In this document: positions 29,333-55,942 of the stretch, piece by piece
How the letters are laid out: every line of letters begins with the position of its first letter
Numbering within the stretch: the stretch's first letter is position 1
Assembly (NCBI GenBank): GCA_002069815.1
Contig: MWCB01000004.1
Coordinates: forward strand, 1 to 60,476
Reading direction: 5' to 3'
Source of the DNA: Tenericutes bacterium ADurb.Bin239
GTDB taxonomy: Bacteria; Bacillota_I; Bacilli_A; RFN20; CAG-826
DNA: 60,476 bases
Made by a program: the position numbers and the translations under genes
Notes under the pieces: model-generated
Seen by the model: only the letters and a program-made list of their open reading frames with translations
What the model was told of the DNA's origin: nothing
Databases searched by the model: none

Positions 29333-30910
29333 ATGGGAAAATTAAGAAAAATAATCGGTAACGTGATTATTTTATCAATGTTAGTACTATCTGGTTGTCA
29401 AAGGGCGGGAGGAAGTATGATTACAAGAAAAATGATTAAGATTCACGATAACACGGAAACTTATAATAAAGAACTTGGCGCCCGTTCGCTTTTACCAATT
29501 GGAAAATCACGTATTCATTATCGACCTTCCGCTGGATGGTTAGGAGATGCTCACCCAATGTATAAAGATGGGGTGTGGTATTTATATTATCTTGATTTAC
29601 CATTTAATACTCCAAATCGTATTGCCCTATCAGGCGTTCGTCAAGGTTTAGCTATTTCCACCGATTTAGTGCATTGGGAAGAGCTAAATCCAACAATTGA
29701 TAATACAAAAAGAGCGTGGTGGGCTATCGCTAATGTTAAGAAGGATAATCAAATATATTCAATGTTTAATGATGTAGTTACTAATATAGGTTACGGATTA
29801 GCTAAAAGTGATGATTTTGTAAACTTCGTTGATTATGGCGCAGTTTATCCTTATTCATATGTCTTAGGTGATGAAGCGCGCGATCCTACACTCTTTTACG
29901 ATGAAAAAGAAGATCTTTATTACTTCATTTATGGTGTGAAAAATAATTCAAAGGTTTACGATAACACTCAAGGCAAATTATATTATTCCACGACAAGAGA
30001 TTTTCAATCATTTAGTGAACCGAAGGTACTATACAATCCCGATAACGCAAGTGTAACCGAATGTCCCGAACTATTTAAGATTGGAAAGAAGTACTATCTA
30101 GTAATGACTTGGGGAACGGACCGAGTCGGAACAGCACGTTATCGTGTTTCTGATAGTATTACTGGCCCGTGGAGTGCGCCACTTATTGATACAATCCAAA
30201 CAACAGAATTTATGGCTCCTAATAGTCGAAGTAACGGGAAAGAGCATATTACTTTTGGCTGGATTCCTACTTATAAAAATAATGAAGACGGAAATACGTG
30301 GCAGTGGGGCGGTGATTTAGCGTTCCCCTTAAAACTTATTCCGCGCAAAGACCATTCGCTTCGTGCGGAACTTGCGATTGATGTTAACAAGATTCGCGCT
30401 GATCAAACATATGATTTTGCACGCGATAAATATGATTATGTTAAAGGCAGTGGCTGGTATATGTCAAATAAAGGATTTGCGTATGAAGAACACGCTTCTT
30501 ACGGTGAAGTGTGGCTTGGCGGAAATCACAATTATTTTGAAATGAATATGGATGTTACCTTTGGCAAAGATAATCGGGGCTTTGGTGTAAGTTTTAGGAC
30601 CGGCAATCACGGTTTTAATGGTTACGAAATCTTTATTGATCCCGTAACAAATACCATGCATCTTCGATATCACTTTGAACGAAGAGTAAGTTTAGTAACG
30701 ATGCCAATTAATATTAAACCGTATACCACGATGCCCTTTAAATTAATAGTGGATGGTCCAATCTTTGAAGCTTATCTTAATAATGAATTTGCTTTCTCGG
30801 GCCGCGCTCATATTCCCGCGACAAGAAATGCTATTGGGCTTTTTTCAGAATATGGCTCCGCTAAATTTGAAAATATTAATGTATTTGATTTAAAGAGAAT
30901 TTATCAATAA
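29333..30910 (+). CDS. Lipoprotein, divergent GH32-like (clan GH-J) five-bladed beta-propeller hydrolase with a C-terminal beta-sandwich (paralog A)
   Basis: Lipobox LVLSGC. Motif triad WLGDAHPMY (in place of WMNDPNG), ARDPTLF (RDP) and TECPELF (EC). Confidence 0.7.
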   Translation: MGKLRKIIGNVIILSMLVLSGCQRAGGSMITRKMIKIHDNTETYNKELGARSLLPIGKSRIHYRPSAGWLGDAHPMYKDGVWYLYYLDLPFNTPNRIALSGVRQGLAISTDLVHWEELNPTIDNTKRAWWAIANVKKDNQIYSMFNDVVTNIGYGLAKSDDFVNFVDYGAVYPYSYVLGDEARDPTLFYDEKEDLYYFIYGVKNNSKVYDNTQGKLYYSTTRDFQSFSEPKVLYNPDNASVTECPELFKIGKKYYLVMTWGTDRVGTARYRVSDSITGPWSAPLIDTIQTTEFMAPNSRSNGKEHITFGWIPTYKNNEDGNTWQWGGDLAFPLKLIPRKDHSLRAELAIDVNKIRADQTYDFARDKYDYVKGSGWYMSNKGFAYEEHASYGEVWLGGNHNYFEMNMDVTFGKDNRGFGVSFRTGNHGFNGYEIFIDPVTNTMHLRYHFERRVSLVTMPINIKPYTTMPFKLIVDGPIFEAYLNNEFAFSGRAHIPATRNAIGLFSEYGSAKFENINVFDLKRIYQ

Positions 30911-38362: not shown

Positions 38363-38532
38363 GATATTTCTTTAGTTTCTCCATTATTATAGTTGTGTTT
38401 TCGATTGTGACTTTACTTTATAGCGAGGCACACACCAAGGAACGGTTAATATCGTTTATCTCTTTAGGCGTAGGTCTTTTAGTGTTAGTTGTTAGTAGCG
38501 TCATTATGTATCGGAGGAAATATGTCCAATAA
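38359..38532 (+). CDS. Candidate 57-aa two-TM small membrane protein
   Basis: Its ATG overlaps the oppF-like TGA (ATGA). It reads MRYFFSFSIIIVVFSIVTLLYSEAHTKERLISFISLGVGLLVLVVSSVIMYRRKYVQ. It fills an otherwise empty 160-nt gap, and its end overlaps the next gene's start. It was hand-translated and is not in the supplied ORF track. Confidence 0.35.
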   Translation: MRYFFSFSIIIVVFSIVTLLYSEAHTKERLISFISLGVGLLVLVVSSVIMYRRKYVQ

Positions 38533-40525
38533 AGTCTTCCCTATAATGTTAGCGTTTAGCACCATTCTTATGAGTGCGTGCAGTCTTGGTTTTGGCGGAA
38601 AAGAAAAAGTTGCCGCATACCATGAACTGTATGATCGTTTTCCGACGCGAAGAATATTTAAAATGCCCGCAAACCATACGAAAGCTCATTATGGTTATAC
38701 GGAAAATGATAGACAAGGTCATCATTCATGGTATTACGGGCAATACACGAAACAAGGCTTTGTTGAAGTGCCTTATAATGAGAAAAAACAAGAATTTACC
38801 AATAGTGAAGTACGACTTAACGGCGCCTTTATGGAAGGGGGCGGGGCGACAAGATGTTGGATTGCTAAATATAGCGGAAGAATAGTCGTTGATGGAAAGT
38901 TTATCGCTAAAGAAAAATCAGTATTACTTATTATGCTTCGTAACGTCATTATGGCCGAATACGAAATACCGAAAAATGCCACCAAATACATTGAAATTTC
39001 GCTCACAATTGATTTTAAAGAAGAACTATATTTCATTGTAAATGGAAGTGCCTTATTTAATCCAACGATTCATTTTGGGACAAAAGATGATACACCGCTT
39101 CATTATGATTCAGCGGTTGATACAAGTTATCCCCATGTTGGTGATGTTCATCCTCTATACGTAGACGGACAATTACGCAATTATTATTTATCGACTAATG
39201 GTTATTTTACCGCGGATATGGTGATTAGTGATGACTTAGTGGTGTTCCGTGATACACATACGAAGGCATCAACGACAAATCCACCGATGACCGAAGGCTT
39301 TGCTACACACGTCTTTAAATACAAAGATGTATATTATAGTTACTACGGCGCTTATAATCGTTATGAACGCACCAAAAGCATTAACGGCTTTCTCTTTGAA
39401 AACGGCGTAGAGATAGATGAAAAAGTTAATGTTCTCGGTCATTTTAATATTGATGAAAGATACATTTGGGGTCGTGACCCCTATACGTTCTTTGATCCTG
39501 ATATTAATAAATATCGTATCGTATCACTAAATTATATTAAAGACCGAACTTCAACATCATATCCCGAAATAGATCTTGCTCTTTATACAAGTATTAATAA
39601 CGAGCCACATTTATTTTCAAGTAATGCGATACCCCTTCTTAATTTAGGAGTAACAAATAATGAACCAGAAGTACCAATGATGATGAAAATAAATAAGCGC
39701 TGGTATTTATTTGCTTGCCTCAGTGGGCGCACGCATAACGGCGTAGGCCCATTATCTTATTGGATAGGGGACGAAAATAAAAAGATTGAAAAAGTTGATT
39801 GGAATAGTAAAAAAGAACACATCTTAACGGGAGAAGATTTGTGCGCTGCGCAAATTGCCAAAGTTAGAGGGCGCTATTATCTTTATGGCTGGATTGCCCA
39901 AGACCACATTAATTCGCGCTGGGGTGGAACGATTAATATTCCCCAAGAAGTGTATCAGCAGGAAGACGGGACCCTTGGCGTTCGGCTTGATGAGTACCTT
40001 ACGGAAAAACTATCAAAAGGTACGATATCTGATGTATTCCTTGATTCTTATGCTACGAATGATTTATTCGATAAAGATACAAAAACACTGCAAAAAGCCA
40101 ATAAAAATAACACATTTGCATCTTTAGCGCTCACAAGTAAACATAAACGGGCGCTAATTAGAGCTAAACTTTCTAACTTAGGAAACGATGCCGTCACTGG
40201 TATTGAGATAAATAACAACGGAAACATATATCAAGTCCGATATAGTTCTAAATCAAATAATATTCAAGTTATAAAAAAGGGGGTGGGAACAGCTTTTAGC
40301 AAGTATGAGACAGACACAGAAAGTCATAATGAATTAGATTTTGTCGTTATAGCTGAAGGAAGTATTCTTGAGGCGTTCATCAATGGGCGCTATGCGCTAA
40401 GTGCACGAATTGATGAAACATTAACTAATTTTGACGTTAGTGTTTATACGACAAAAAACGAAATTCAGCTTGACGAATTTAAAGTTAGCCAATTGGCAAC
40501 CAAAAATAATTTTCAAGATAATTAA
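38522..40525 (+). CDS. Lipoprotein with an N-terminal extra domain and a divergent GH32-like hydrolase module (paralog C)
   Basis: Lipobox ILMSAC, reached from the ATG at 38522 (RBS ggagga). Motifs HVGDVHPLY, GRDPYTFF and EPEVPMMM (EVP in place of ECP). LTGEDLCAAQIAK...YLYGWI is shared with paralog B. Confidence 0.65.
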   Translation: MSNKVFPIMLAFSTILMSACSLGFGGKEKVAAYHELYDRFPTRRIFKMPANHTKAHYGYTENDRQGHHSWYYGQYTKQGFVEVPYNEKKQEFTNSEVRLNGAFMEGGGATRCWIAKYSGRIVVDGKFIAKEKSVLLIMLRNVIMAEYEIPKNATKYIEISLTIDFKEELYFIVNGSALFNPTIHFGTKDDTPLHYDSAVDTSYPHVGDVHPLYVDGQLRNYYLSTNGYFTADMVISDDLVVFRDTHTKASTTNPPMTEGFATHVFKYKDVYYSYYGAYNRYERTKSINGFLFENGVEIDEKVNVLGHFNIDERYIWGRDPYTFFDPDINKYRIVSLNYIKDRTSTSYPEIDLALYTSINNEPHLFSSNAIPLLNLGVTNNEPEVPMMMKINKRWYLFACLSGRTHNGVGPLSYWIGDENKKIEKVDWNSKKEHILTGEDLCAAQIAKVRGRYYLYGWIAQDHINSRWGGTINIPQEVYQQEDGTLGVRLDEYLTEKLSKGTISDVFLDSYATNDLFDKDTKTLQKANKNNTFASLALTSKHKRALIRAKLSNLGNDAVTGIEINNNGNIYQVRYSSKSNNIQVIKKGVGTAFSKYETDTESHNELDFVVIAEGSILEAFINGRYALSARIDETLTNFDVSVYTTKNEIQLDEFKVSQLATKNNFQDN

Positions 40526-41576: not shown

Positions 41577-43039
41577 ATGTTTAAAAAAATATTTTATCGA
41601 CCCCAAACGGGCGTCTGCGCGGACTTTATTCCGTTTTACGACGAAGGCGAATTCAAACTATACTTTCTACGAGATTATCGGGACTTTGATAAACATGGTG
41701 AAGGAACACCATGGCAACTAACAGTTACCAAGGATTTAATTAGTTTTACCGATGAAGTTGAAGTTATTTCCCGGGGAACCAAAGAAGAGCAAGACTTATA
41801 TGTGTTTACTGGTTGTGTCAATAAGATTGATGGTAAGTATCACATCTTTTACACGGGCCATAACCCACACTTAAGAAGACAAGGTAAACCCGAGCAAGCA
41901 GTAATGCACGCTGTTAGTAAAGACGGGGTAAATTTTACTAAAATCCCCGCTGACACATTCTTCGCTCCTGGTGATAAATATGAAATGCATGACTGGCGTG
42001 ATCCCTTCATCTTTTTTGACAAAGATAAGGGACACTATGTTATGCTCTTAGCCGCCAGAACCAAAGAAGGACCAGCAATCCGGAAAGGGTGTACTGCGGT
42101 TTGTGTCTCGAAAGACTTAAAGAAATGGAAAGTCACGGGCAACATTTTAGAACCACGCGCTTTCTTCACTCACGAATGCCCTGATTACTTTGAAATTGGG
42201 GAATGGAAGTATATTATTTATTCCGAATTCAGTGATCGGTGTATTACTCGTTATAAAATGAGTAAAGATGGTGTTACATGGTTAACACCAAAAGTTGATA
42301 ACCATGTAACACCATCTTTACTCATTTTATAACGAGTAAAGATGGTGTTACATGGTTAACACCAAAAGTTGATAATTTTGATGGTCGCGCCTATTACGCC
42401 GCAAAAAGCGCCTGTAATGGTAAGAATCGTTATCTATTTGGTTGGATTCCCACTAAAAAAGATAGTGATCATGCTCACTGGGATTGGGGTGGTGATTTAG
42501 CAATCCATGAAATAATCCAAGGGAAAGATGGAACACTTTATACTAAGATGCCACGCAGCATTAAAGAATCGTTTACCAAAACATATTTAGATGTTAAAGA
42601 AATAGTACTGGGTACGGCGACCACTGATGAAGTTAAGACAATTATTAATCGTGAAATTGATGAATATTACTTAGAATGTGAAATTGAGTTTGATGAAAAT
42701 TTAACCGGTGTCGGACTCTTACTTAATTTTGATGAAGTAGCGGATCGCGGATACGGTTATACACTTAATTTATTTAATAATTTATTCGCATTTGATGTTT
42801 ATCCAAATCAGCCATGGAACTTAACAAACTTTATTAACGTACATCGTCCCCTTGAACTTAAACGCAAATATAAATTGCAATTACTTGTTGAGAAAAACAT
42901 TGCGGTTGCGTATCTCGACGATAAATATGCACTCTCCACTAGAATGTATCCGCTAGCGACACCAACCTTTAATTTAGGACTAATCGCTAAAAATGGAGTC
43001 GCTAAATTTAAAAACTTAAAAATTAAAACACGTAAATAA
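41577..43039 (+). pseudogene. Cytoplasmic divergent GH32-like hydrolase (paralog D), interrupted by a 74-nt foldback duplication
   Basis: There is no signal peptide. Motifs YRPQ...CADFIPFY, WRDPFIFF and HECPDYF. The ORF stops at TAA 42330-42332, inside the inserted segment. The remainder (FDGRAYY...YLFGWIPTKKD...WGGDLAIHE...) continues in the frame shifted by 2. Deleting 42302-42375 restores one 463-aa ORF. Confidence 0.8.
42247..42375. repeat. Foldback (inverted plus direct) duplication
   Basis: 42302-42336 is the exact reverse complement of 42247-42281 (35 nt). 42334-42375 is an exact direct copy of 42260-42301 (42 nt). The net insertion is 74 nt. Confidence 0.95.
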
Positions 43040-43063
43040 CTTCGGTGATTGAAATTAATTTAA

Positions 43064-43987
43064 CTACCAATTTACTGTTATGTTAATGTCTTGTTTATAA
43101 TCACCAAAATTTGATCCAAAAAGATTGATGCCCCCCTTATATCGGGCATCATCTTGGACCCCGATTTTAAGCGAGAAGTAATGATTTTCTTTAATGTTTA
43201 ATTCATCAATAGTGACGTCACTCACTTTTATGTTATTGATAAAACAACCATTTTTAGTTACTTCCCAAGTTGTCAAGATGCCATATTGTGTTAATTCTTG
43301 TGGCCACCAACTTGGGTTTTGTTTTCCGGCGCGGCCCCCGAAGTCGCCGGGACTAGTCCATTCCCCAATTAAAACATTGTTAATCCATACTGAAATATCG
43401 GATTTCCAGTCATTACGATAGAAAGGAGCTTCGGAACAAACTTCAAATGAAACCGTTAATTTTTCAAGTTTGCGCGGCAGCATTTTATTACTAATCCAAT
43501 ACTCCAAGTAACCACTGTGAAACCAAATTAATCCAGCCTTATTTCGATCGGGATCAAAGAAACTAGTGTTGTCATTATCGTCATTTCCTAATTTGTGGGT
43601 TGAAGTAGCAATACCACAGTTTGGTTCAACATCAAAATTAACATAACTACCGATTGGAACTTTATATTTCATGGAGTGTTGAACGTTATCATATTCATGG
43701 AAAATATCAATAGTTACCTCATCACAGTTACGACTACAAATCTTTGATTTTCCGTTTCTTGTGTAAATTTCTTTAACTTCGATAAGTTCACAATCAGCAA
43801 GAACATTAACGTGAACCGAAGTTGAAGAAAGTGGTAATTCAAGCTTGTCTGATAGTTCTTTTACACTTAAGCTCGCAGTATTTAGAAGTTTTAAAATATC
43901 AAGACGTTCAGGCGAAGATAATGCACGTGCCACCTTTGTTAATTTCTTTTTGTCTTGGGCAAGCGATAGTTTTAAATTATTAATCAT
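43064..43987 (-). CDS. ArsR-type wHTH regulator fused to a roughly 200-aa beta-rich C-terminal domain
   Basis: The N-terminus ALSSPERLDILKLLNTASLSVKELSDKLELPLSSTSVHVNVL is ArsR/SmtB-like. The C-terminal half (WINNVLIGEWTSPGDFGGRAGKQNPSWWPQ...) is not a known effector domain that I can name. The gene is divergent from the GH2 operon. Confidence 0.7.
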   Translation of the reverse strand: MINNLKLSLAQDKKKLTKVARALSSPERLDILKLLNTASLSVKELSDKLELPLSSTSVHVNVLADCELIEVKEIYTRNGKSKICSRNCDEVTIDIFHEYDNVQHSMKYKVPIGSYVNFDVEPNCGIATSTHKLGNDDNDNTSFFDPDRNKAGLIWFHSGYLEYWISNKMLPRKLEKLTVSFEVCSEAPFYRNDWKSDISVWINNVLIGEWTSPGDFGGRAGKQNPSWWPQELTQYGILTTWEVTKNGCFINNIKVSDVTIDELNIKENHYFSLKIGVQDDARYKGGINLFGSNFGDYKQDINITVNW

Positions 43988-44042
43988 AATAGTGGCTCCT
44001 TAATTCATTCTTTACTCTATTATAAAACCTTAATAATAAAAA

Positions 44043-44103
44043 TACTACTACAAAAAAACTGAAGTAGTAAAAACGGAATAGTATTTCTTTTTGAATAACT
44101 ATT
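44043..44103. promoter_or_regulatory. Candidate operator region (two imperfect inverted repeats) between the ArsR-like gene and GH2
   Basis: tactactac-N9-gaagtagta (44043-44069, 1 mismatch) and aatagt-N15-actatt (44077-44103). No binding data exist. Confidence 0.3.
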
Positions 44104-44153
44104 GAGTTAATTTATATGTGATAATAAAATGAAACTGACGAAAGGGAAAGTGC

Positions 44154-45893
44154 ATGATAATTAGAAACGAATATCCGCGTCCAGAGTTTAAACGCGCAGT
44201 TTGGCAAACGTTAAACGGATTGTGGGATTTTGAATTTGATGACACAAATAGTGGGATAGCAAAAGGCTTTTACAAAGTAAGCCATTTATTATCTCGTAAA
44301 ATAGTTGTACCTTTTGCCTATCAAACGGAAGCAAGTGGTATTAATGAAACAGAAGATCACCCCGTTATGTGGTATAAAAAAACATTTACATTAGAGGAAG
44401 GACTAAAAGGCAAGAATATTCTTCTTACGTTTAATGCAGTTGATTATAGTGCCACGGTGTGGGTTAATGGCATATATGTGGGTGAACATCATAATGGTTA
44501 TTCACGATTTTCGTTTAACATCACGAAACTACTAAAACAAAAAGGTGAAAATGTCATTACCGTTCGCGTAGTGGATGATGTTGATGCGAATCAGCCGCGC
44601 GGCAAACAATCGTGGATTGGCGAAACACATCGCTGTTGGTATTATGCAACAAGTGGAATATGGCAAAGTGTATGGCTTGAAGCAGTCGGGGAAGATCATC
44701 TAGTAAAAACACTAATTGTCCCAAACATCGATAAAAATAATGTTTTATTTACTTTTGAAACAAATGGATGTGCAAGCGATATTGATGTTGAAATATCATT
44801 CAAAGGTGAAGTAGTTAAGAAAATTAAAAGTACACTTGATGGCAAGATTACTAAACTAACAGCGGAATTGTTGCCATATGACGCAATTGATGAAATTCAT
44901 TATTGGTCTCCTAATCATCCCAATCTATATCAAGTGAAATTAACACTCTACATGAAAAACAAAGTAGTAGATGAAGTTGATACTTACTTTGGGTTTCGAA
45001 AAATTTCACTTGATGGACTGGGGAATATTTTATTAAACAATCGCCCCCTTTATCAAAAACTTATCCTTGATCAAGGCTATTGGGCTAAAACTGGACTAAC
45101 ACCGCCATCACACGAAGCATTAGCGCATGATATTAGATTAGCAAAAGAAATGGGCTTCAATGGAGCGCGTAAACATCAAAAAATAGAAGATTCGTATTTC
45201 TATTATTACGCTGATAAATTAGGATTCCTCGTCTGGGCAGAAATGCCAAGCGGATATCAATATGACTATAAAGAAGTTAGTAAAGTTAGCAGCCAATTTT
45301 ATGATTTAATTATTCAACTCTATAACTTCCCTAGCATTATCACTTGGGTTCCCCTAAATGAGAGCTGGGGCGTTCGTAAAATACTCGTTAATAAAGAACA
45401 GCAAGCCCTAGGTAAAAGTTTATATTATTTAGCCAAAGCAATTGATCCCACGCGCCTTGTTAATATTAATGACGGCTGGGAAAATCCGTTGTTAACGGAC
45501 TTTATTTCAATTCATGATTATTCGCGTTATGGCGAAGATTTTGCTAAAGAAAGTTCAAAAGAGGGAGTAGTTAAAGCTTATCCAATGGGCCGCAAAACGA
45601 TTATTGGAACAGAATATAATCCCACTAAGCCAGTCTTAATCACTGAATTCGGCGGTATTTCTATTCGTGAATTCATGAAAAAAGATAATGATTGGGGCTA
45701 TGCTGGAAATGAAGACTTAGAAGGTTTTTATAAACGGTTTAAAATCCTTATGGATAATATAAAAGCTTCTGATATTCAGGGATATTGTTATACGCAATTA
45801 ACTGATGTTATGCAAGAAACAAATGGGTTATTAGACGCGAATCATAATCCCAAAATAAATCTTAAAAAAATTAAGGATATTTTAAATGGATAA
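44154..45893 (+). CDS. GH2-family glycoside hydrolase (cytoplasmic)
   Basis: Sugar-binding domain pattern VWVNGIYVGEHHNGYSRFSFNIT, catalytic acid region PLNESWG and nucleophile region LITEFGG. There is no signal peptide. Confidence 0.8.
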   Translation: MIIRNEYPRPEFKRAVWQTLNGLWDFEFDDTNSGIAKGFYKVSHLLSRKIVVPFAYQTEASGINETEDHPVMWYKKTFTLEEGLKGKNILLTFNAVDYSATVWVNGIYVGEHHNGYSRFSFNITKLLKQKGENVITVRVVDDVDANQPRGKQSWIGETHRCWYYATSGIWQSVWLEAVGEDHLVKTLIVPNIDKNNVLFTFETNGCASDIDVEISFKGEVVKKIKSTLDGKITKLTAELLPYDAIDEIHYWSPNHPNLYQVKLTLYMKNKVVDEVDTYFGFRKISLDGLGNILLNNRPLYQKLILDQGYWAKTGLTPPSHEALAHDIRLAKEMGFNGARKHQKIEDSYFYYYADKLGFLVWAEMPSGYQYDYKEVSKVSSQFYDLIIQLYNFPSIITWVPLNESWGVRKILVNKEQQALGKSLYYLAKAIDPTRLVNINDGWENPLLTDFISIHDYSRYGEDFAKESSKEGVVKAYPMGRKTIIGTEYNPTKPVLITEFGGISIREFMKKDNDWGYAGNEDLEGFYKRFKILMDNIKASDIQGYCYTQLTDVMQETNGLLDANHNPKINLKKIKDILNG

Positions 45894-46659
45894 AAATATT
45901 GGTCGTGTTTTTTCAATCGAAGAATTTAGTGTCTATGACGGACCGGGAATTAGAACTACTGTCTTTCTCAAAGGGTGCCCGCTCCAATGTGAGTGGTGTC
46001 ATAACCCTGAAGGCCGGATTTATGAAAAACAAGAAGTTCATGATCCCCGCACGGGAAAACTATTAAGAATAAGTGGTACTGATTACACTGTTGATGAATT
46101 AGTGACTAAATTACTCAAGAACGCAAAAGTTCTTAATATGAACGGGGGAGGTGTCACCTTTTCAGGAGGCGAACCACTCTACCAACCTGAATTTCTAAAT
46201 AAAGTGTTAATAAGACTAAAAGGGAAAGTTCATATTGCAATTCAAACCTCAGGATATGCGACGCAAGAAGTGTTTGAGGAAACACTTAAAAATGTCGATT
46301 TAGTGCTCTTTGACTTAAAGATTATGGATAACGAGCTTGCCCAAAAATTCCAAAAAGCAGATAACAGGGTTATCTTCAATAATCTTGAAGTATTAAAGAA
46401 AACAAAAGTACCATTTATTGCAAGAGTCCCGCTTATTCCTGAACTTACGGACACAGACGCGAACCTTTCCCAAATAGCGGAACTACTAGCGGATGCTAAA
46501 AACTTAATGATGGTTGAAATTCTTCCTTATAACAAAATGGCCGGAGCCAAACATCGCATGCTTGGGAAAAAATATGAACCACACTTTGATGAAAACAAAG
46601 AATTAAACTTAAATATAGAAATCCTTACGCGCAAAGGATTTAAAGTGAAGGTGAATTAA
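45886..46659 (+). CDS. Glycyl-radical-enzyme activating enzyme (radical SAM), short PflA-like form
   Basis: GIRTTVFLKGCPLQCEWCHNPEG carries CX3CX2C at 45976-45999, and the VTFSGGEPL motif is present. At 257 aa it has no Cys-rich ferredoxin-like insert. Its ATG overlaps the GH2 stop. Confidence 0.9.
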   Translation: MDKNIGRVFSIEEFSVYDGPGIRTTVFLKGCPLQCEWCHNPEGRIYEKQEVHDPRTGKLLRISGTDYTVDELVTKLLKNAKVLNMNGGGVTFSGGEPLYQPEFLNKVLIRLKGKVHIAIQTSGYATQEVFEETLKNVDLVLFDLKIMDNELAQKFQKADNRVIFNNLEVLKKTKVPFIARVPLIPELTDTDANLSQIAELLADAKNLMMVEILPYNKMAGAKHRMLGKKYEPHFDENKELNLNIEILTRKGFKVKVN

Positions 46660-46660
46660 G

Positions 46661-48709
46661 ATGAATGAAAGAGTTAAAGTAATTCTTGAGAGACTCCATG
46701 ACCGAAAGTATCGTGAACTTCGGGTTAATTATGAAGTTAATCTAGCAAGCGAGTACGCTAAAAAGAAAGTACCGTTTCCTTTACGCGCGAGCGATCGACT
46801 CCAAAAACTAGCCGAGGCCGAAAAAGCAATCGTATACCCAGGTGACAGAATTGGTTTTTATCGTACGATTCGCAACATTCCGAAAATATTAACCGATAAA
46901 GAGTTTGATGATCTTGGTAAAAAGTATTTCTTATTCGATGGTGCCCAAGTTGGTAATATCAGCAGTGATTATGAATATACTTTAAAAGTTGGTTTTGATA
47001 AACGGTTAGAAGAAGTTGAAACTCAGATAAAAAAGGCAAACACGAACGCTGAATTAAATGAATTAAAAGCAATGAAAGAATCAATTTTGGCCATTTATAC
47101 AATTGCTGACAAATATCGCGCTGCGTATAAAAACAATAAGGAAATGCGCGAGATTCTTACAAGAATACCGCGTAAAGGAGCCACAAGTTTTCATGAAGCA
47201 CTTGTGTTTTTACGCTTATTAAATTTCACCCTTTGGTTAAACGCTAATAAACATAATACCTTAGGGCGCTTTGATCAATACATGTATCCTTATTTCAAAA
47301 AAGATATTGAAAGCGGACGTTTAACCAAAGAAGAAGCGTTCGTATTAATTCAAGAATTTTTCCTCTCACTTAACTTTGATAGTGATTTATATCCTGGTGT
47401 GCAACAAGGGGATAATGGTCAAAGTTTAGTGTTAGGGGGCGTTGATTTAAAAGGTAAGGAAGCCTTTAATGAATTATCAAAATTATGTTTAGAAGCTTCT
47501 TTGGAGTTAAATCTCATTGATCCAAAAATTAATATGCGTGTTAGTGCAAACACTGCCGATAAATGGTTCCTACTTGGCACAAAGTTAACGAAAAAGGGTT
47601 TAGGATTCCCTCAATATTCAAATGATGATGTAGTTATTCCCGCATTAGTAAAGTGGGGCTACAAACTTGAGCATGCGCGCGACTATGTAGTGGCGGCTTG
47701 TTGGGAATTTATCATTCCAAAATATGCAATGGATATTCCTAATGTTGACGCTGTTAATTTTCCCGAACTTGTTAACAAAACGATTAAAGAAAAACTACTT
47801 GTTTCCAAAACATACGATGAGTTTGAAAAATATTTCAATCAAAACATTCATGGTGAAGTGGAAAGAATGGTAAAAGCTTACGGTAATTATTATATTATTC
47901 CGTCTCCCTTCCAATCTTTGCTAATGGATGGATGTGTTGAACGGCGGAAAGACATTAGTGAAGAAGCTCTTTATCAAAACTTTGGTTTCCATGGCGCTGG
48001 TATTGCTACTGCTGTTGATTCTTTAGCAGTTATTAAAAGCAAAATATTCAAAGAAGAGAAAATAAGTAAACAAGGTCTCATTGATGCCTTAAAGTCAAAT
48101 TATGAAGGGTATGAAGAGTTGCGTCACATCTTACAAAACGGTCCAAAAATGGGTAATAACGATGATGATATTGATGATATAGCGGTCAGAATGCTAGATG
48201 TGTACGCTGATGCATGTAGTAAATATAGAAATGCGCGCGGCGGAATTATCCGTCCAGGAACAGGAACGGCCATGTATTATATTTGGCACTCAGAGAGACT
48301 AGGTGCAACACCTGATGGTCGTAAAGCTGGCGAACCGTTTGGCGCTAACTATTCGCCATCCATTAATTCGCGCTTTAACGGGGTTCTTTCCGTTATTCAG
48401 TCATTTTCCAAACCAAATCTTGAAAGAGTGTGTAATGGTGGACCACTCACTTTAGAATTCCATGACACCGTCTTCCGCAATGAAGAAGGCGTTAGCAAAG
48501 TTGCTGCGCTCGTTCAAACATTTGTGAAACTTCGCGGACATCAATTACAACTAAATGCAGTTAATCGCGAAACATTACTAGATGCCCAAAAACATCCCGA
48601 AAAACATAAGAACTTAATCGTTCGAGTGTGGGGCTGGAGCGGGTATTTTAATGAATTAGACCCAGTGTATCAAAATCACGTTATTCAAAGACTTGAATTC
48701 TTACAATAA
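46661..48709 (+). CDS. Glycyl radical enzyme, PFL2/dehydratase-like clade, unusually short
   Basis: The C-terminal fingerprint NLIVRVWGWSGYF matches RVxG[FWY], with the radical Gly at residue 658 (48632-48634). A single-Cys loop VVAACWEF has Cys347 (47699-47701) and Glu349. It is 682 aa and starts 1 nt after the activase stop. Confidence 0.88.
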   Translation: MNERVKVILERLHDRKYRELRVNYEVNLASEYAKKKVPFPLRASDRLQKLAEAEKAIVYPGDRIGFYRTIRNIPKILTDKEFDDLGKKYFLFDGAQVGNISSDYEYTLKVGFDKRLEEVETQIKKANTNAELNELKAMKESILAIYTIADKYRAAYKNNKEMREILTRIPRKGATSFHEALVFLRLLNFTLWLNANKHNTLGRFDQYMYPYFKKDIESGRLTKEEAFVLIQEFFLSLNFDSDLYPGVQQGDNGQSLVLGGVDLKGKEAFNELSKLCLEASLELNLIDPKINMRVSANTADKWFLLGTKLTKKGLGFPQYSNDDVVIPALVKWGYKLEHARDYVVAACWEFIIPKYAMDIPNVDAVNFPELVNKTIKEKLLVSKTYDEFEKYFNQNIHGEVERMVKAYGNYYIIPSPFQSLLMDGCVERRKDISEEALYQNFGFHGAGIATAVDSLAVIKSKIFKEEKISKQGLIDALKSNYEGYEELRHILQNGPKMGNNDDDIDDIAVRMLDVYADACSKYRNARGGIIRPGTGTAMYYIWHSERLGATPDGRKAGEPFGANYSPSINSRFNGVLSVIQSFSKPNLERVCNGGPLTLEFHDTVFRNEEGVSKVAALVQTFVKLRGHQLQLNAVNRETLLDAQKHPEKHKNLIVRVWGWSGYFNELDPVYQNHVIQRLEFLQ

Positions 48710-48726
48710 AAAGGAGGGATTATGTT

Positions 48727-50253
48727 ATGCATAAACGCAAAACCTTATTTATTACCGGAGTACTTTTGCTTATGAGCACATTATCAGGCTGTAAAGTTAA
48801 TCCACAAGAAAGTATAAAGCAAAGCGAAGATATTGTGGAACTAGGCACAAAGTACAAGGTAATGGAGGATTATTTCTACAATCCTATGGTTATTGATTTC
48901 CGCATGGGTGATCCGTGGCTTTACTACCATGACGGTTATTATTACTATACGCAATCTGAAGGGACACGAGTCCGCGTTACCAAATCGCCATATATGACAC
49001 AATTAACATCCAATCCGAATGATGAAACACGGACTAAAATTTTATTCCGTCAAAAAAGTATTGATGTCGTTGAAATTTGGGCTCCTGAAATTTTCTTCTT
49101 TGAAGGACATTGGTATATTTACTTCACGGCAACTAAAGACGCTAAAACTGAAATTGAAAAAGATACTGGTCGCCGCACTTATGGGATGAAAAGCGTTACT
49201 GACGATGCCTTTGGCGAATGGGAAACCCCGGTTGAAATTAAATTACCAATGGATTATCGCTCAATTGACGCAACATTTTTAGATTATGATGGTCGTCAAT
49301 ACATTATTTGGTCAGGATGGCCCAACGCTGAAAATCTCAATTGGCGACAAAATCTTTATATTACTGAACTTGTAACTGGCAATCCACTTCTTGCTAAAAG
49401 TACCGCTGATACTGAACGGCACATTATTAGTGTTCCTCATTACGAATGGGAAAATTCAAGCATTTTCCAAAATGAAGGACCAAGTGCCATTATTTCACCA
49501 GATGGAACCCCGATTATTTTCTATGCTGGGAACTTCTCTGGTGATGATAGTTACTGTGTCGGCTATATTACTTTAACTGGGACAGACTTAACGAATTTTG
49601 ATCATTGGACCAAAAATCCCGAACCATTGATGGCAACTGATATGGCTTACTCGGAAATTATTGCGCCAGGTCATTGTTCAATTGTTAAGTCGCCCGATCA
49701 AACCGAATGGTGGATTATGTATCACTCGGCAAAATATTCAGGTGCGGGTTGGGACCGAATGGCCCGTTTACAAAAAATGGAGTGGGTTAACGGCAAACCG
49801 CATGTTGAAAAAATTACGAAGATTGCTGATCCTAATCCGCTCCCATCTGGTGAAGCAGGGGGACGTCAACGGCTTTATGAAGCAGAAGATGCGGTATTAA
49901 CCGAAGACTGTTTCGTTATTGATAAAGAAGGATACGCTGCTGGAGATAATGCTGTTTCCATTTCAGAAAATGGAAGTATTACCTTTGAAATTGGAGTACC
50001 AGCAAACGGCCCATATGTTGTCGGTATTCGTTTCTCAAACCGCGACTCTTCATTATTCAATATGAACGTCACGGTTAATGGTAATGAGATGCTTGTCTAC
50101 GCTCCGCGCACCCAATACGATGATTCCTTCACTATTGCCTATTTTTTCACCGATTTATACATCAAACGCGAAGGTTTAAACACAATTAGTATAAACGCTG
50201 ACCCAAGCATTTATATTGACTGTTTAATATTAGATTTAATGAATCATAAATAA
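48727..50253 (+). CDS. GH43-family lipoprotein with a C-terminal CBM6/35-like module
   Basis: Lipobox LSGC. GH43 pattern GDPWLYYHDGYYYY, IWAPEIFFFEGHWYIYF and NEGPSAI. The C-terminal module begins RLYEAEDAVL. Confidence 0.75.
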   Translation: MHKRKTLFITGVLLLMSTLSGCKVNPQESIKQSEDIVELGTKYKVMEDYFYNPMVIDFRMGDPWLYYHDGYYYYTQSEGTRVRVTKSPYMTQLTSNPNDETRTKILFRQKSIDVVEIWAPEIFFFEGHWYIYFTATKDAKTEIEKDTGRRTYGMKSVTDDAFGEWETPVEIKLPMDYRSIDATFLDYDGRQYIIWSGWPNAENLNWRQNLYITELVTGNPLLAKSTADTERHIISVPHYEWENSSIFQNEGPSAIISPDGTPIIFYAGNFSGDDSYCVGYITLTGTDLTNFDHWTKNPEPLMATDMAYSEIIAPGHCSIVKSPDQTEWWIMYHSAKYSGAGWDRMARLQKMEWVNGKPHVEKITKIADPNPLPSGEAGGRQRLYEAEDAVLTEDCFVIDKEGYAAGDNAVSISENGSITFEIGVPANGPYVVGIRFSNRDSSLFNMNVTVNGNEMLVYAPRTQYDDSFTIAYFFTDLYIKREGLNTISINADPSIYIDCLILDLMNHK

Positions 50254-50270
50254 AAGGAGGTAATGCATTT

Positions 50271-52520
50271 ATGAAAAGATTCTTTAAAAGATTGTCGACA
50301 TTATTAGTGCCCTTGCTCGTCATAAGTTTATCAGCATGTCGCACTAAATCATCATCGCGAGATGTCAGTCAACCTGTGTCAGAAACTTCAACCGTTGTTG
50401 AAGATTACTACACAATTAACGTTTCTTCAATTGCAACCGAAATGCTCGTAGATACGGAAATGGTGTTAAACCCAACCTTTACCAATTTGGGTGAACCCGC
50501 AACTCCAAACTACAAAGTTGAAATTTTGCAAGAAGGAACAACCGATGTTACCGCTGCAGTGTATACCGCGGCAACGAAAAAATTTGCCCCAACCGAAGTT
50601 GGAGTTTACGAGGTAACCTTTACTGTTCTTAATGATGAGGGCGAAGTCCTAGTCGTTAGTGGCGGAACAAGTTTCAGTGCTAAAGTAACGATTAACGTCG
50701 TTATTCAAAGTTTTGAACCACTAGCTTCCGCTGGACCTGATGTATCAATTGATGAATCTGGAGAAGTAGCAACGATCACCTTTGGTGATTCCTACCTCGA
50801 AGGGAATAAAATGATTACGAGTGGTCAATATAAGGTTACAGGTCTAACCTTCCAAGGTAACTATTCAATTACTTATAAATTAGGAAATGTTAGACATAGT
50901 GAAGCTTATCACGATCCCGCCTTCTATTTAGGGTGGACCAGAAATACAATTGATGCCCAAGACGACTGTTTTAAATTAAGTACGGGCGATGGCACCGTTG
51001 CAACCTGGATTTGGGGCGGAACAGGGTTAGCCGATCTTAGCAGTAACTTAGATCATGGCTGGTTCCATAATGTATGGTTTAATGCCCCTGGGTCAGTGAG
51101 TGATAATCAACCAATTGCTGGTGATCACTATATTACTTTTGAACGATTCATTAGTGAAGATGGTAAAGCAACATATGGGATCAAATATGACAATGTTGCG
51201 TTCAACTTCCTTGAAATCGGCAAAAACTTCACCGACTTATTATCAAATGTCTGGATTGAAGCGCATAATACTAGCGCGACGCTTTCGGTGGCAGGATATG
51301 GCGTCGTGAGCGACACGATTAGCCCAGAAGTAGTCCTCTCTTACCCAGAATATACAACCGAAGATACTATTCACTTACGTGGCGGGGCAACGATTACAGA
51401 TAATGGTGATTACGGACATCTCATCGTTCCTTATTTCACCGTTCTTGATCCAGAAGGCGAAGAAGTAGTCGTAACCCAAAATTCATTTGAACCAACCATG
51501 GTTGGTGATTATGAGGTTACTTGTAACGTTAAAGATATCGCGGGCAACACCGCTTCAGCGACTACCACAATTACCGTTACTGAACCAGAAGTCACGCTAT
51601 ATGTATTTGATTTAGATAATACAACGCCAGTGGCTCGTACTAATTCAGGCGTCATCTTATATTATGGCGTTACTTTAGAAGGCGAACCAGTTGCCGTCGA
51701 TAGTGTTCAAATCCTTAAAGGTGATACTTTAGAAACAGCAGTTGATGTCACAGCGGAAACTTACGAAATCGTTGAATCCGTCGACAAATCGCTAGCGTAT
51801 GAAGTGTTTACACCCAAAGAAGCTGGTATGTATTTACTCAAACTTACTGTTGGTGATACAGTCCGCACTAAACAAATTAATGTCACTGATAGTTGTGAAC
51901 AAGTATATGGTCAAAAATATTGGGAAAGCGCCTATGAAAACTTCATTATGGGTCGCGAAACCTATATCTACCGCAATGTCGGCGGCGGGAAAACAGTTGG
52001 GAAAGTTGGTAATGACTTCACCCGTAAAACAAACTGGACCATAAGTTTTGAAATTACTGATTTAAAATACGCAGCGCAAGGTAAATTTATGATCACAATT
52101 GGCGCTGGTAAAGCTGATGGTGGATGGGGCGGATGGGAAGACCTCGCTGTCGGCGGTAATGTTAACGATGATCTCTGGGGCTTTGAAACATGTACGGTCG
52201 GTGTTGGCTGGCAAACATATCAATGGCGTTCCAACTGGCAAGATAAGACGACCGAATTTATGCCAGACCCCGAAGATCCAACAGTTGGATGTGGACGTCC
52301 CGCTAGTGCGTATACGCAATATGGCACTGGCACCCACTCATACAAAATTGTTTGTAGTACAGATAGCGAAGGCGCTGTTACATATTCATTCTTTATCGAT
52401 GATATGCCAGAAGCAGTCCACCGTTTACCTGCTGCTCACAATGAAATTAACTCCACAGACTTTATGCAATTCTCATCCAACAGCATGAACGGAATTATTA
52501 CTAATTTCAAAATAGTCTAA
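50271..52520 (+). CDS. Large surface lipoprotein with Ig-like (DUF5011/Big-like) repeats and LamG-like regions
   Basis: Lipobox ISLSAC; 749 aa. It carries an Ig-like segment ...DNGDYGHLIVPYFTVLDPEGEEVVVTQNSFEPTMVGDYEVTCNVKDIAGNTASATTTITV. No catalytic motif was recognised. Confidence 0.55.
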   Translation: MKRFFKRLSTLLVPLLVISLSACRTKSSSRDVSQPVSETSTVVEDYYTINVSSIATEMLVDTEMVLNPTFTNLGEPATPNYKVEILQEGTTDVTAAVYTAATKKFAPTEVGVYEVTFTVLNDEGEVLVVSGGTSFSAKVTINVVIQSFEPLASAGPDVSIDESGEVATITFGDSYLEGNKMITSGQYKVTGLTFQGNYSITYKLGNVRHSEAYHDPAFYLGWTRNTIDAQDDCFKLSTGDGTVATWIWGGTGLADLSSNLDHGWFHNVWFNAPGSVSDNQPIAGDHYITFERFISEDGKATYGIKYDNVAFNFLEIGKNFTDLLSNVWIEAHNTSATLSVAGYGVVSDTISPEVVLSYPEYTTEDTIHLRGGATITDNGDYGHLIVPYFTVLDPEGEEVVVTQNSFEPTMVGDYEVTCNVKDIAGNTASATTTITVTEPEVTLYVFDLDNTTPVARTNSGVILYYGVTLEGEPVAVDSVQILKGDTLETAVDVTAETYEIVESVDKSLAYEVFTPKEAGMYLLKLTVGDTVRTKQINVTDSCEQVYGQKYWESAYENFIMGRETYIYRNVGGGKTVGKVGNDFTRKTNWTISFEITDLKYAAQGKFMITIGAGKADGGWGGWEDLAVGGNVNDDLWGFETCTVGVGWQTYQWRSNWQDKTTEFMPDPEDPTVGCGRPASAYTQYGTGTHSYKIVCSTDSEGAVTYSFFIDDMPEAVHRLPAAHNEINSTDFMQFSSNSMNGIITNFKIV

Positions 52521-52533
52521 GGACACAAAAACA

Positions 52534-54156
52534 ATGAGAAATAAATTTAGATTAACCTCATTATTATTACTCACGGGGGCCCTTGTGGCCCTCGTGGGGT
52601 GCACCACTACTGGTTCGGGTAGTGGCGGTCAAGGATCTCCTACGGGTAAGACTACCGTTTCACTGTGGGGTTGGGGAGATGAAAAGGAAGTCGAAGTATT
52701 CCAAAATTTACTTCGTAATTATAATTCAACTAATGAAGATAATATCTATGTTAACTTTGTTAAAAAACCAAGTAATAGTTACTATAGCGTTTTAGAAACG
52801 GCTTTAACTGGCCGCCAAGCACCAGACTTATTCTATTTAGGTGACTCAATGATTAAGCGGTTCACAGCCGCAGGTTATGTCCAAGAACTTGATCAATATA
52901 TTGCAACAAGTGAAATTATTGACATGGATGATATTTGGAGCACGCTCATGAAGCGATACCAATTTAATCCACAAACGTATCAATACGGACCAACGGAACA
53001 CATTTGGGGATTGCCAAAAGATATTGGTCCCACCGTTATTTTTTATAATGAGGACGCCTTCAGTGCTAAAGGAATCAGTGTTATAAGTGCAAAAGATGAT
53101 GATAACGATGGGGTTGTTAAAGTTAATGGCACTAATTATCCCGCGGTGGGCTATAACGATGAATTAAAAGTGTTTAATAATAAAATCGCGATGACCTTTG
53201 AAGAGTGTGATGTTTTATCGGCATTGCTCTCAAGTGGTAGTACAAACGCACGAACGCACCAAACTAAATGGGGTTTTTATTCAAATTGGTGGTTTTACGC
53301 AGGATGGAGTGTTGGCGGTGATGTTTTACACTTTAAAGAAACTGATGACCCAGCGTATAACGGTGGTTATTGGGAGTTCACTCTTGATGATACAAATCCA
53401 AACTATCGCGCCCTTAAAGATGTCACAGTTCACGGCAAAAACTATGTGAAAGGTCAATTTATTGATTATTATAGCCTTGCTTATTTAGCGGCAAATAAGA
53501 GTGTCGCTGATGCACATATAAATGCGGGCGAACTTGTTAAATTACCGTCAATGCGGGAAGTGTTTGATTACTGGTTAACTTACTTCAGCGGGGGCTTATC
53601 ACCAAAACCGGCTGATATTTCAACTGAACTGGCGCTCTTTACAAGTCAAGATGTAGCAATGTTTGTTGAGGGACGCTATGTTGTCCCCCAATTTAGAAGT
53701 GACGCTCAATTTAATTGGAACGTGGCGCCCTTACCGCGTCATAAAGATGGTGTTTCAGCTGGACATAGTGGCTCGATGTGTCTATCAATGTCTGTTCGTT
53801 CAAGCGTTAAAGAACAAGCTTTTAAAATTATTGAGTACTTATGCGGACCACATGGTCAAGATGCTTTAGCCGAAAGTGGCTTTAACGTTCCTAACCAAAT
53901 AAGTCTCGCTAGTGATCCAACAGCGAACTTCCTAAATAGTACGGAAAAACCACAAAACAATGAAATTTATCTTGAAGCCGCGGCGATTCAAAGAGGGGGC
54001 GACTGGACTTTCCTTGCGGATGACCGCTGGATTGAGATTTGGGCTCCCACTTTAAATGGCGACGTTATGAATGGGGTTAAAACGGTTGATCAACTATTTA
54101 GTCTTTACAAAGATCAAGTTAATGCCTATCTTAAACAATATACTGAGAAAAAGTAA
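52534..54156 (+). CDS. Family-1 carbohydrate ABC substrate-binding lipoprotein
   Basis: Lipobox ALVGC followed by a Gly/Ser linker; 540 aa. It is followed by MalF/MalG-type permeases. Confidence 0.8.
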   Translation: MRNKFRLTSLLLLTGALVALVGCTTTGSGSGGQGSPTGKTTVSLWGWGDEKEVEVFQNLLRNYNSTNEDNIYVNFVKKPSNSYYSVLETALTGRQAPDLFYLGDSMIKRFTAAGYVQELDQYIATSEIIDMDDIWSTLMKRYQFNPQTYQYGPTEHIWGLPKDIGPTVIFYNEDAFSAKGISVISAKDDDNDGVVKVNGTNYPAVGYNDELKVFNNKIAMTFEECDVLSALLSSGSTNARTHQTKWGFYSNWWFYAGWSVGGDVLHFKETDDPAYNGGYWEFTLDDTNPNYRALKDVTVHGKNYVKGQFIDYYSLAYLAANKSVADAHINAGELVKLPSMREVFDYWLTYFSGGLSPKPADISTELALFTSQDVAMFVEGRYVVPQFRSDAQFNWNVAPLPRHKDGVSAGHSGSMCLSMSVRSSVKEQAFKIIEYLCGPHGQDALAESGFNVPNQISLASDPTANFLNSTEKPQNNEIYLEAAAIQRGGDWTFLADDRWIEIWAPTLNGDVMNGVKTVDQLFSLYKDQVNAYLKQYTEKK

Positions 54157-55095
54157 ATGAAGTCAAAGCGTAAAAATTATAAACGACGAGAAGAGTTACT
54201 AGGAACCTTTTTTGCTTCACTCCCTGTTATAGGGTTCCTTGTTTTTGGTATAGTGCCGCTCGTCTTGTCGTTTATAATGAGCTTTTCTTATATGCCAAGC
54301 TTTGATATTAGAGCAATGAAGGTTTTAGAATGGGGGAAACTCTTTAATAATTATAGGACCGTTTTAACTGATCCACTTTTTTATAAGAGTGTTGGAAATA
54401 CACTTTACGCGGCTCTTGCTTTACCACTCTCAATTATCATTGCCCTTATTTTAGCGGTATTACTCAATCAAAAGATTAAAGGGAAAAAGTTTTACCGCAC
54501 CATCTTTTTTATTCCGTATGTATGTTCAATTGTAGCGGTCACCCTTATGTGGCGGACATTACTAAATCGAAACTATGGCGCTATTAACCAATTTTTAGGA
54601 CTATTTGGGATTGAACCAATTGCGTGGTTAACAGATGATCGTTTTTATATGCCCGCTATGATTTTAATGTCGATCTGGTGTAGTGTTGGTTTTAACTTAA
54701 TTTTATATTCAGCGGCATTAACAAACATTAGTCCGACAATTTATGAAGCGGCGGACATTGATGGCGCTGGTCCAGTTCGCAAATTCTTTAGTATAACGCT
54801 GCCATTATTATCACCGACAACGTTTTATTTATTTATTGTCGGTATGATTGGCGCACTTCAAGAATTTGTCCGTTTCCAGTCGATGAACGCTGTTAATAGT
54901 AGTTTAATTAGTCCAACTGGTCCAAATAATGCTGGACTGACAATAGTTTTCTATTTGTATAACCTTGCTTTCTCACAGGCCGGTGGACTAGGATTAGCGG
55001 CCGCAACATCATGGATATTAGCGATTATTACAATTATTTTGACAATATTCAGCTTCCGTATTTCCCGAAAGGCGATTTATTATGACCAGGCGTAA
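54157..55095 (+). CDS. Carbohydrate ABC permease (MalF/UgpA type)
   Basis: 6 TM segments and the EAA-loop region YEAADIDGAGPVRKFFSITLP. Confidence 0.85.
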   Translation: MKSKRKNYKRREELLGTFFASLPVIGFLVFGIVPLVLSFIMSFSYMPSFDIRAMKVLEWGKLFNNYRTVLTDPLFYKSVGNTLYAALALPLSIIIALILAVLLNQKIKGKKFYRTIFFIPYVCSIVAVTLMWRTLLNRNYGAINQFLGLFGIEPIAWLTDDRFYMPAMILMSIWCSVGFNLILYSAALTNISPTIYEAADIDGAGPVRKFFSITLPLLSPTTFYLFIVGMIGALQEFVRFQSMNAVNSSLISPTGPNNAGLTIVFYLYNLAFSQAGGLGLAAATSWILAIITIILTIFSFRISRKAIYYDQA

Positions 55096-55942
55096 AGTAC
55101 TTAAAATTGTTACCCATATTGTGCTTTCCTTAACCGCACTAGCGTATATTATTCCCTTTTATATTGTCTTTATTACTGCTTTTAAAGCTAATAACGCAGT
55201 TGCAACCGCGACCCCTTTTATTTGGTTTCCAGTTGGTGACCAATTAGGGGTTCAAGGATTTATTGATGTTTTTAAAACATATACGATTTTTTCCACTGGT
55301 AAATCAATGGTTGCCACTGGATTTAAAAACACACTTATTATTATTGTTCCTGTCATTGTGGGAGGGATGTTTAGTAGTAGTCTAGCGGCATACGCTTTTG
55401 CCAAAATGAAGTTTAGACTCAAAAAAGCAATGTTTACTACACTAATGTTTTCAATGATGCTGCCAGGTATAATCTTACTAATCCCCTCCTACTTTGTCTA
55501 CGATAATCTTGCGTTAACAAATACTTTTTTCCCACTGATTGTGCCACCGATGTTTGGTTCAGCTCTGGGGGTCTTTTTCTTAAGACAATATTACACAGGT
55601 ATTCCTGATGAATTACTTGAAGCAGCGAAGATGGACGGATTGGGACACTTTGGAATTTACTTCCGAATTGTGCTTCCACTTTCGATACCAGCCCTTATTG
55701 CCCAAGGTTTATTAGGACTTGTCGCGACATATAACGATTACCTAAATCCCTTAATTTATTTACTTGATGAAGAGAAATACACCCTTCAAATTGCGCTCTC
55801 AATGTTTGCGTCAGGGAACACTAATAGTCTCCATACCGTTATGGCGGGATCAATTATTGCGATGTTACCGATGCTTATTATTTACTTCTTACTCCAAAAA
55901 CACTTTGTGAATGGTTTAACAATGTCAGGAATGAAAGGATAA
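55082..55942 (+). CDS. Carbohydrate ABC permease (MalG/UgpE type)
   Basis: EAA loop LLEAAKMDGLGHFGIYFRIVLP. It overlaps the upstream permease by 14 nt. No cognate ATPase gene is present in the locus. Confidence 0.85.
   Translation: MTRRKVLKIVTHIVLSLTALAYIIPFYIVFITAFKANNAVATATPFIWFPVGDQLGVQGFIDVFKTYTIFSTGKSMVATGFKNTLIIIVPVIVGGMFSSSLAAYAFAKMKFRLKKAMFTTLMFSMMLPGIILLIPSYFVYDNLALTNTFFPLIVPPMFGSALGVFFLRQYYTGIPDELLEAAKMDGLGHFGIYFRIVLPLSIPALIAQGLLGLVATYNDYLNPLIYLLDEEKYTLQIALSMFASGNTNSLHTVMAGSIIAMLPMLIIYFLLQKHFVNGLTMSGMKG

Follow-up and report, generated by a model that had tools for sequence, protein, structure and literature searches.

The window, by which we mean the whole stretch of 60,476 nucleotides analysed here, begins with the genes dnaN-recF-gyrB-gyrA and has a positive GC skew over its entire length. 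This gene order and skew make the plus strand the leading nascent strand, so that the plus-strand GH32 gene considered below is co-directional with the replication fork, and the insert that interrupts it sits to the right of the replication origin, at a distance of about 42 kb. Among the species representatives of the genome collection, the nearest is the MAG Tenericutes bacterium ADurb.Bin087 (94% amino-acid and ~87% nucleotide identity), hereafter the sister species. The window's own species was found in metagenomes from wastewater, anaerobic digesters, bioreactors and some soils.

The GH32 gene closes a plus-strand run that comprises a LacI regulator, a sugar kinase, a 525-aa GH32 paralogue, an Opp-type ABC transporter, a 678-aa GH32-like lipoprotein and a 282-aa lipoprotein; a convergent ArsR-type regulator follows after 24 nt. 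Three GH32-type genes thus share one cluster: the 525-aa protein with GH32N and GH32C domains (29333-30910), the 678-aa lipoprotein with a weak GH32N match (38489-40525) and the broken gene for a 462-aa cytoplasmic protein (41577-43039). The transporter encoded between them is of the Opp type (SBP_bac_5), not a typical sugar transporter.

The assignment to GH32, originally made from the letters alone, was borne out by the Pfam profile GH32N (PF00251), which matched residues 19-294 of the restored protein with 104.3 bits against a gathering cut-off of 22.1 bits. Its best solved relatives are the GH32 structures 6R3R and 8A9Y (E ~10−44; 5 × 10−44 for 6R3R), and its alignment to 6R3R runs unbroken through the insert site. 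As had been claimed for the paralogs, the restored protein is also continuous through the site when compared with the 525-aa paralogue, at 26% identity. The motifs DWRDPF and HECPDY, aligned to 6R3R, are both present, and we take them to be the conserved catalytic RDP and EC motifs of GH32. The N-terminus leaves no space for a signal peptide. Judged from its sequence, the restored protein is a GH32 enzyme, predicted to be a fructan or sucrose hydrolase from the name that its relatives carry at JGI, beta-fructofuranosidase.

In the window this gene is interrupted by 74 nt of extra DNA (Table 1). A model that had read only the letters of the window (the sequence-only reading) had described an inverted and a direct copy of neighbouring DNA, and on recheck both were exact: 42302-42336 is the reverse complement of 42247-42281, and 42334-42375 differs from 42260-42301 at no position. 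The premature TAA was found where that reading had placed it, in frame with the ORF that starts at 41577, and so was the +2 frameshift. Deletion of 42302-42375 restores, again as proposed, one ORF reading ...RYKMSKDGVTWLTPKVDNFDGRAYY...; its length is 462 aa, however, and not 463. The same product results from deleting any one of 43 equivalent 74-nt windows, with starts from 42260 to 42302. The break falls after residue 242, so that the final portion of the beta-propeller is lost together with the entire C-terminal domain.

Table 1. Features of the interrupted GH32 gene, its 74-nt insert and the DNA from which the insert derives (window coordinates).
Feature	Position	Strand	Remark
Truncated GH32 reading frame	41577..42332	+	242 native and 9 foreign residues (HVTPSLLIL), then stop
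Short palindrome A, TTACTC-N10-GAGTAA, 9-pair stem	42244..42265	.	Already in intact gene
New perfect hairpin, 41-bp stem (42244-42284 / 42299-42339), 14-nt loop	42244..42339	.	
Ancestral source segment: a 42247-42259, b 42260-42281, c 42282-42301	42247..42301	+	
Quasi-palindrome TTAACA-N8-TGATAA, 5/6 pairs, last 3 (TTA/TAA) perfect	42282..42301	.	Already in intact gene
Alternative perfect hairpin, 25-bp stem (42299-42323 / 42334-42358), 10-nt loop	42299..42358	.	
Inverted copy, reverse complement of 42247-42281	42302..42336	+	With microhomology, 42299-42339 matches 42244-42284
74-nt insert, one of 43 equivalent placements	42302..42375	+	No other assembly has the insert
Premature TAA in the gene frame	42330..42332	+	
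Second direct copy of 42260-42301	42334..42375	+	With the first copy forms 42-bp direct repeats, 74 nt apart
Rest of GH32 coding sequence, shifted +2	42335..43039	+	First in-frame start at 42548 gives a 163-aa ORF

The insert contains no foreign DNA: all of its 74 nt can be traced to the adjoining 58 nt. The whole window is exactly the ancestral sequence up to 42301, followed by the reverse complement of 42247-42281 and then by the ancestral sequence from 42263 onwards, with zero other changes. When the source is divided into the segments a, b and c, segment a occurs twice in the window (direct and inverted), segment c twice (both direct) and segment b three times, at 42260-81 (+), 42302-23 (inverted) and 42334-55 (+).

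This arrangement creates a long hairpin. The sequence-only reading had given it a perfect 35-bp stem and a 20-nt loop; the stem is indeed perfect, but it extends to 41 bp around a loop of 14 nt and, at 98% pairing, to 44 bp around one of 8 nt. Likewise, the alternative hairpin described as 22 bp long does exist, as a perfect stem of 25 bp. Folding energies were −50.6 kcal/mol as ssDNA (z = −14.1) and −79.6 kcal/mol as RNA (z = −14.6). In a window of the same composition, chance alone would yield about 5 × 10−14 perfect inverted repeats of 35 bp. An inverted-repeat scan showed that the hairpin is by far the longest local inverted repeat within the 60 kb and found nothing comparable to the repeat at 42244-42339 elsewhere in the window.

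Both joins of the insert lie at palindromes that were already present in the intact gene. At junction 1 (AAAAGTTGATAACCATGTAACACC) there is a 3-nt overlap, in which TAA at 42299-42301 pairs with TTA at 42282-42284, and over the arms of the surrounding palindrome TTAACA-N8-TGATAA five of six positions pair. Junction 2 (TCATTTTATAACGAGTAAAGATGGT) has a 6-nt overlap, GAGTAA, within the palindrome TTACTC-N10-GAGTAA (42244-42265). Here the inverted copy stops at the palindrome's left arm (TTACTC, 42244-42249), so that the new 3' end, GAGTAA, is identical to the right arm at 42260-42265. The two junctions are 38 nt apart. Overlaps this long at both junctions (≥3 nt and ≥6 nt) arose in 0.023% of randomly placed events, with the same or with random geometry. 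Microhomology at both junctions argues that the joins were made by annealing and extension, and hence by a polymerase, rather than by ligation or arbitrary pasting.

As single-stranded DNA, the intact allele forms two adjacent small hairpins exactly at the two switch points, and the quasi-palindrome at 42282-42301 overlaps the right arm of the second of these, ancestral hairpin B (42269-42290). Within the coding sequence, the pair (42244-42290; 5590-5700 on the minus strand of locus L005) reads TTACTCGTT-ATAA-AATGAGTAA and TGGTGTTA-CATGGT-TAACACCA and has an ssDNA fold z of −2.5. In the sister species, the GAGTAA arm of hairpin A is unchanged, while the left arm and the loop of hairpin B have one substitution each.

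Comparison with orthologues found the gene intact in all other copies, including that of the sister species. Thirteen named assemblies have either the 462-aa gene or the intact diagnostic sequence: three from NCBI (GCA_022706375.1, GCA_040364315.1 and GCA_025563055.1), three from ENA (ERZ2647912, ERZ2647956 and ERZ795049) and seven from Logan (SRR27449287, SRR27449297, SRR13001968, SRR33935136, SRR28714611, DRR520373 and ERR14964778). We therefore count at least 13 public assemblies with the intact gene, as a lower bound. The exact restored protein is encoded by six of these assemblies, and protein P0001 is 99.6% identical to it (D85N, K87E). Logan contigs from eight runs in seven studies cross the site with a 74-nt skip and are otherwise 99-100% identical, and a scan of JGI metagenome contigs for the intact-form pattern added one further contig.

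The closest of these relatives is a sister MAG, GCA_022706375.1, whose contig JAKJCR010000007.1 spans the whole window. Over ~60.4 kb, the two differ by one SNP and by the 74 nt, with no other indel between them. The SNP, at 38864 within the gene for the 678-aa GH32-like lipoprotein, is a G in the window and a T in the MAG; this position is polymorphic among strains, with G in five loci and T in five. Run X1 has the window's base at this SNP and zero mismatches over the GH32 gene, yet it shows the intact form across the site. Four apparent mismatches to the MAG proved to be a BLAST alignment that extended into the inverted copy.

Searches for the insert itself gave no second instance. Neither the insert nor a variant of it was present in the at least 13 assemblies or the eight runs, which represent strains 96.7-100% identical. 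Junction words matched no run in the run indexes, junction 1 had no match in the JGI metagenome contigs, and neither junction occurred in any of the 23 loci compared. A 10-kb query with the strain-specific right end had no run above 0.88 of its words. An exact-protein look-up of the 251-aa truncated product had no match, a negative of a kind that does not prove absence. The same type of look-up missed the 525-aa GH32 paralogue despite a DNA-identical gene in locus L016. As the intact allele is found in all other copies and in a near-identical MAG, the insert is derived, private to one record and extremely recent, and the comparison of these sequences indicates that the gene was ancestrally, and is generally, intact. 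The earlier claim of a very recent inactivation, if it is real, agrees with a MAG that is one SNP away in ~60 kb and lacks the insert.

The insert can be compared with several known kinds of rearrangement. Kugelberg, Roth and colleagues (Genetics 2010) reportedly described tandem inversion duplication (TID) in Salmonella. The direct-inverted-direct layout seen here, with segment b in three copies and segments a and c in two, has the topology of the bacterial TID. Inverted triplications in human (DUP-TRP/INV-DUP) and yeast (ODIRA) have junctions at short interrupted inverted repeats (PMC4689423, PMC11293582). The insert resembles TID and this group in having three copies of which the middle one is inverted, flanks that are only duplicated, both junctions at short, interrupted, pre-existing inverted repeats, and an origin that two switches or a snap-back can explain. 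It differs from them in scale, being 74 nt, or ~1000 times smaller, where they span kb to Mb. Moreover, they amplify genes under dosage selection, whereas the insert destroys a gene, and it involves no replication origin or extrachromosomal intermediate.

A second comparison is with the four-point template-switch model of Löytynoja and Goldman (2017; PMC5453318), which has also been applied to the creation of hairpins (PMC8794818). In such events, as here, one switch-and-return with a reverse-complement middle explains the whole change and a long perfect hairpin arises de novo. For the insert, the three fragments of the model rebuild the derived sequence exactly, from an ancestor that is established by close relatives. 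The four points occur in the order 3 (42244-47), 4 (42260-66), 2 (42281-84) and 1 (42301), or 4-3-1-2 in the mirror image, and point 4 precedes point 1 in both. This departs from the observed classes, in which point 4 does not come before point 1; the class in which it does is a theoretical possibility that the human and chimp data did not show (PMC5453318). Unlike the surveyed events, the insert needs an opening of freshly made duplex and brings a direct duplication of 42 nt.

Quasipalindrome-associated template switching in Escherichia coli, explained by the Ripley model and studied in the Lovett laboratory (PMC7202029), shares with the insert the bacterial setting, replication and switches at imperfect short inverted repeats. 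Classic events of this type perfect an existing repeat and change few bases. The insert instead adds 74 nt and uses the palindromes as landing sites only, and the mismatch between TGATAA and TTAACA is retained. Taken together, the insert is not a new kind of genetic element: it belongs to a known kind of process and has one unusual trait, the order of its switches.

The sequence-only reading had named a template switch during replication, or a snap-back, as one process expected to leave such a footprint. Its testable parts hold, and both junctions are at palindromes, with 3 and 6 nt of microhomology. We mildly favour the view that the 74-nt block is a fresh, strain-private mutation that arose in the cell by a double template switch on the intact 462-aa GH32 gene. 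The nascent plus-sense 3' end at ...TGATAA (42301) would first leave its template, and a stall at the two template hairpins is a plausible trigger. The freed end would then pair at 42282-42287 (TTAACA/TTA), by snap-back within its own strand or on the other parental strand, the lagging-strand template, and the paired strand would be copied backwards to 42244. The new 3' end, GAGTAA, could re-pair with the original template at 42260-42265, where synthesis would resume. A second round of copying through 42266-42301 would complete the direct-inverted-direct order, in effect a miniature inverted triplication. Of the two ways of switching, an intra-strand snap-back of a peeled-off nascent end seems preferable to an inter-strand switch, as the order of the points needs newly made duplex to be opened and a peeled-off end supplies just that. 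In favour of an origin in the cell, the rest of the window is without an indel relative to the sister MAG and the assembly is otherwise clean. The role of the plus strand as leading nascent strand also speaks for it, as does the resemblance, in topology and junctions, to inverted triplications that template switching produces (PMC4689423, PMC11293582).

It is quite possible, if in our judgement not probable, that the switch instead took place outside the cell and that the gene is intact in the organism. A polymerase would then have made the joins during MDA, or during end-repair and fill-in after enzymatic fragmentation at inverted repeats, and a few chimeric molecules would have entered the consensus of a low-coverage metagenome assembly. 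Several of the above observations fit such an origin and speak against one in the cell: the insert has been seen in one assembly only, with no independent observation among the indexed runs, JGI contigs and 23 loci, while the near-identical MAG and even the SNP-matched run X1 are intact. Short complementary sequences also prompt polymerases to switch template in vitro (PMC1855051, PMC7531576). Chimeras made by MDA are mostly inverted and intramolecular, have 2-21 nt of complementarity and occur about once per 10-22 kb (PMC1855051), and fragmentation enzymes lead to the joining of nearby opposite-strand DNA at natural inverted repeats (PMC7531576, PMC10908179). The absence of the 3-4-2-1 class from the human and chimp four-point survey (PMC5453318) likewise counts against a mutation in the cell. 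The left end of the window lies 51 nt from the contig end of the sister MAG, which suggests a short-read contig of modest and possibly low coverage.

The known products of such reactions nevertheless differ from what is found here. Like the insert, they join nearby opposite-strand DNA at short complementarity (PMC1855051, PMC7531576, PMC10908179, PMC13141652). However, they have a single inverted junction, after which the molecule stays on the wrong strand, and they are found at low allele fraction or at the scale of whole reads. The insert has two junctions and a clean return, is followed by 18 kb of correct sequence and stands in the consensus. Molecules from enzymatic fragmentation are below 5% allele fraction (PMC7531576) and would normally lose to the intact path, which junction k-mers in a consensus normally must outweigh. 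The sequence-only reading had also offered a chimeric foldback read as the source. We retain the option of an artefact but not in that form: foldback chimeras from nanopore sequencing have one junction and inverted parts of more than 500 bp (PMC13141652), as against two junctions 38 nt apart. There is also no other anomaly in the window. The insert is, in sum, either an artefact of sequencing or a replication error that happened very recently.

In one of the strains compared, locus L010 (ENA ERZ2647956, coverage of about 5), the PFL-like and SBP_bac_1 genes are each split by single-base gaps relative to the window. These splits are probably frameshifts of a low-coverage assembly, and they indicate that broken genes are not rare in these metagenome assemblies.

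If the double template switch did occur in the cell, the insert is probably prone to precise loss by slippage, given that its 42-bp direct repeats are brought together by the hairpin; repeat-mediated deletion is the established process behind such a predicted loss of 74 nt. This leads to a bolder reading, in which the two adjacent hairpins are a recurrent hotspot and the insert a real but unstable 3-4-2-1 intermediate that toggles GH32 off and, through the 42-bp repeats, back on. It would amount to an unprogrammed switch in a wild anaerobic-digester Mollicutes-like bacterium, and we consider it highly unlikely.

Less likely again is a purely computational error, in which an assembler, a polisher or later editing of the record produced a sequence that no molecule ever had. 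That the insert is known from one record only would agree with this. All junction-crossing k-mers, however, are missing from the intact window and from the 23 loci on both strands at every k ≥ 11. An assembler could therefore not have built the joins from reads of the intact allele, and sequenced molecules must have held them. The repeats that existed beforehand, at 6-9 bp, are far below the k values of assemblers and cannot be joined by a walk through the graph, and random pasting would give the observed microhomologies in only ~0.02% of cases. A misassembly confined to the graph is thus excluded by the novelty of the junction k-mers, and systematic assembly noise was rejected in view of the lack of other long local inverted repeats and of other indels relative to the sister MAG.

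The least probable reading, that of a recurrent or programmed on/off switch (a phase variation hotspot) or the footprint of a small mobile element, could draw on direct repeats that permit exact reversion and on the paired hairpins at the switch points of the intact allele, but it is at odds with the absence of the insert from all the other assemblies and runs, with its purely local sequence devoid of a recombinase site and with the lack of a comparable inverted repeat elsewhere in the window. A mobile element of the IS or MITE type, which would bring in foreign sequence bounded by terminal inverted repeats and duplicate its target site, was rejected because the insert is wholly local. A scan for a regulatory hairpin or terminator picked up, on the minus strand, no more than hairpin B, which is small and ancestral, and the copy of it; nothing pointed to a function.

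The insert has no function of its own and is either a loss-of-function allele of one of three GH32 paralogues or an error. The sequence-only reading had expected it to leave a strongly structured element inside the operon. With the GH32 gene at the end of its co-directional run and a convergent neighbour behind it, however, the hairpin has no operon genes downstream on which to act, and no polarity is expected. For the biology of the organism the loss would matter little, given that the cluster retains two other GH32 paralogues and that downstream genes are untouched. Annotators should treat the gene as a pseudogene of very recent date, or else as an error of the assembly or the library, and not as a sign that the species lacks the enzyme, nor should the hairpin be taken for a regulatory element. 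If real, the insert would be a clean natural double template switch in an uncultured bacterium at almost zero divergence from its ancestor, with that ancestor known to the base and both landing sites identifiable. It would then show that long perfect hairpins and inverted triplications can arise in one step, and would belong to a class of switch order not seen in human data.

Two further regions of the window vary among relatives. A block of ~13 kb (43034-55996) is missing at the syntenic position of the sister-species MAG ADurb.Bin087, where the GH32 gene and the rpmE side are just 113 nt apart (locus L001, 3710-3823). The block encodes an ArsR-type regulator, GH2 and GH43 proteins, a glycyl-radical activase with a PFL-like glycyl radical enzyme, an ABC sugar transporter and a 749-aa protein without a clear domain. 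It has the look of a carbohydrate-utilisation island specific to the species and including a glycyl radical enzyme, to which we assign no substrate. The second region, at 59265-60476, is shared by the window and GCA_022706375.1 (locus L011, 19214-21825) and contains a 231-aa ORF that has no Pfam hit, together with a large serine recombinase, which is 578 aa long in the MAG and is cut by the window end. In its place, the strains of loci L008-L010 have Fic and LacI-family genes. The boundary of the variable region is the 3' end of a U5-methyltransferase gene (451 versus 453 aa), and the region is probably a strain-specific integrated element.
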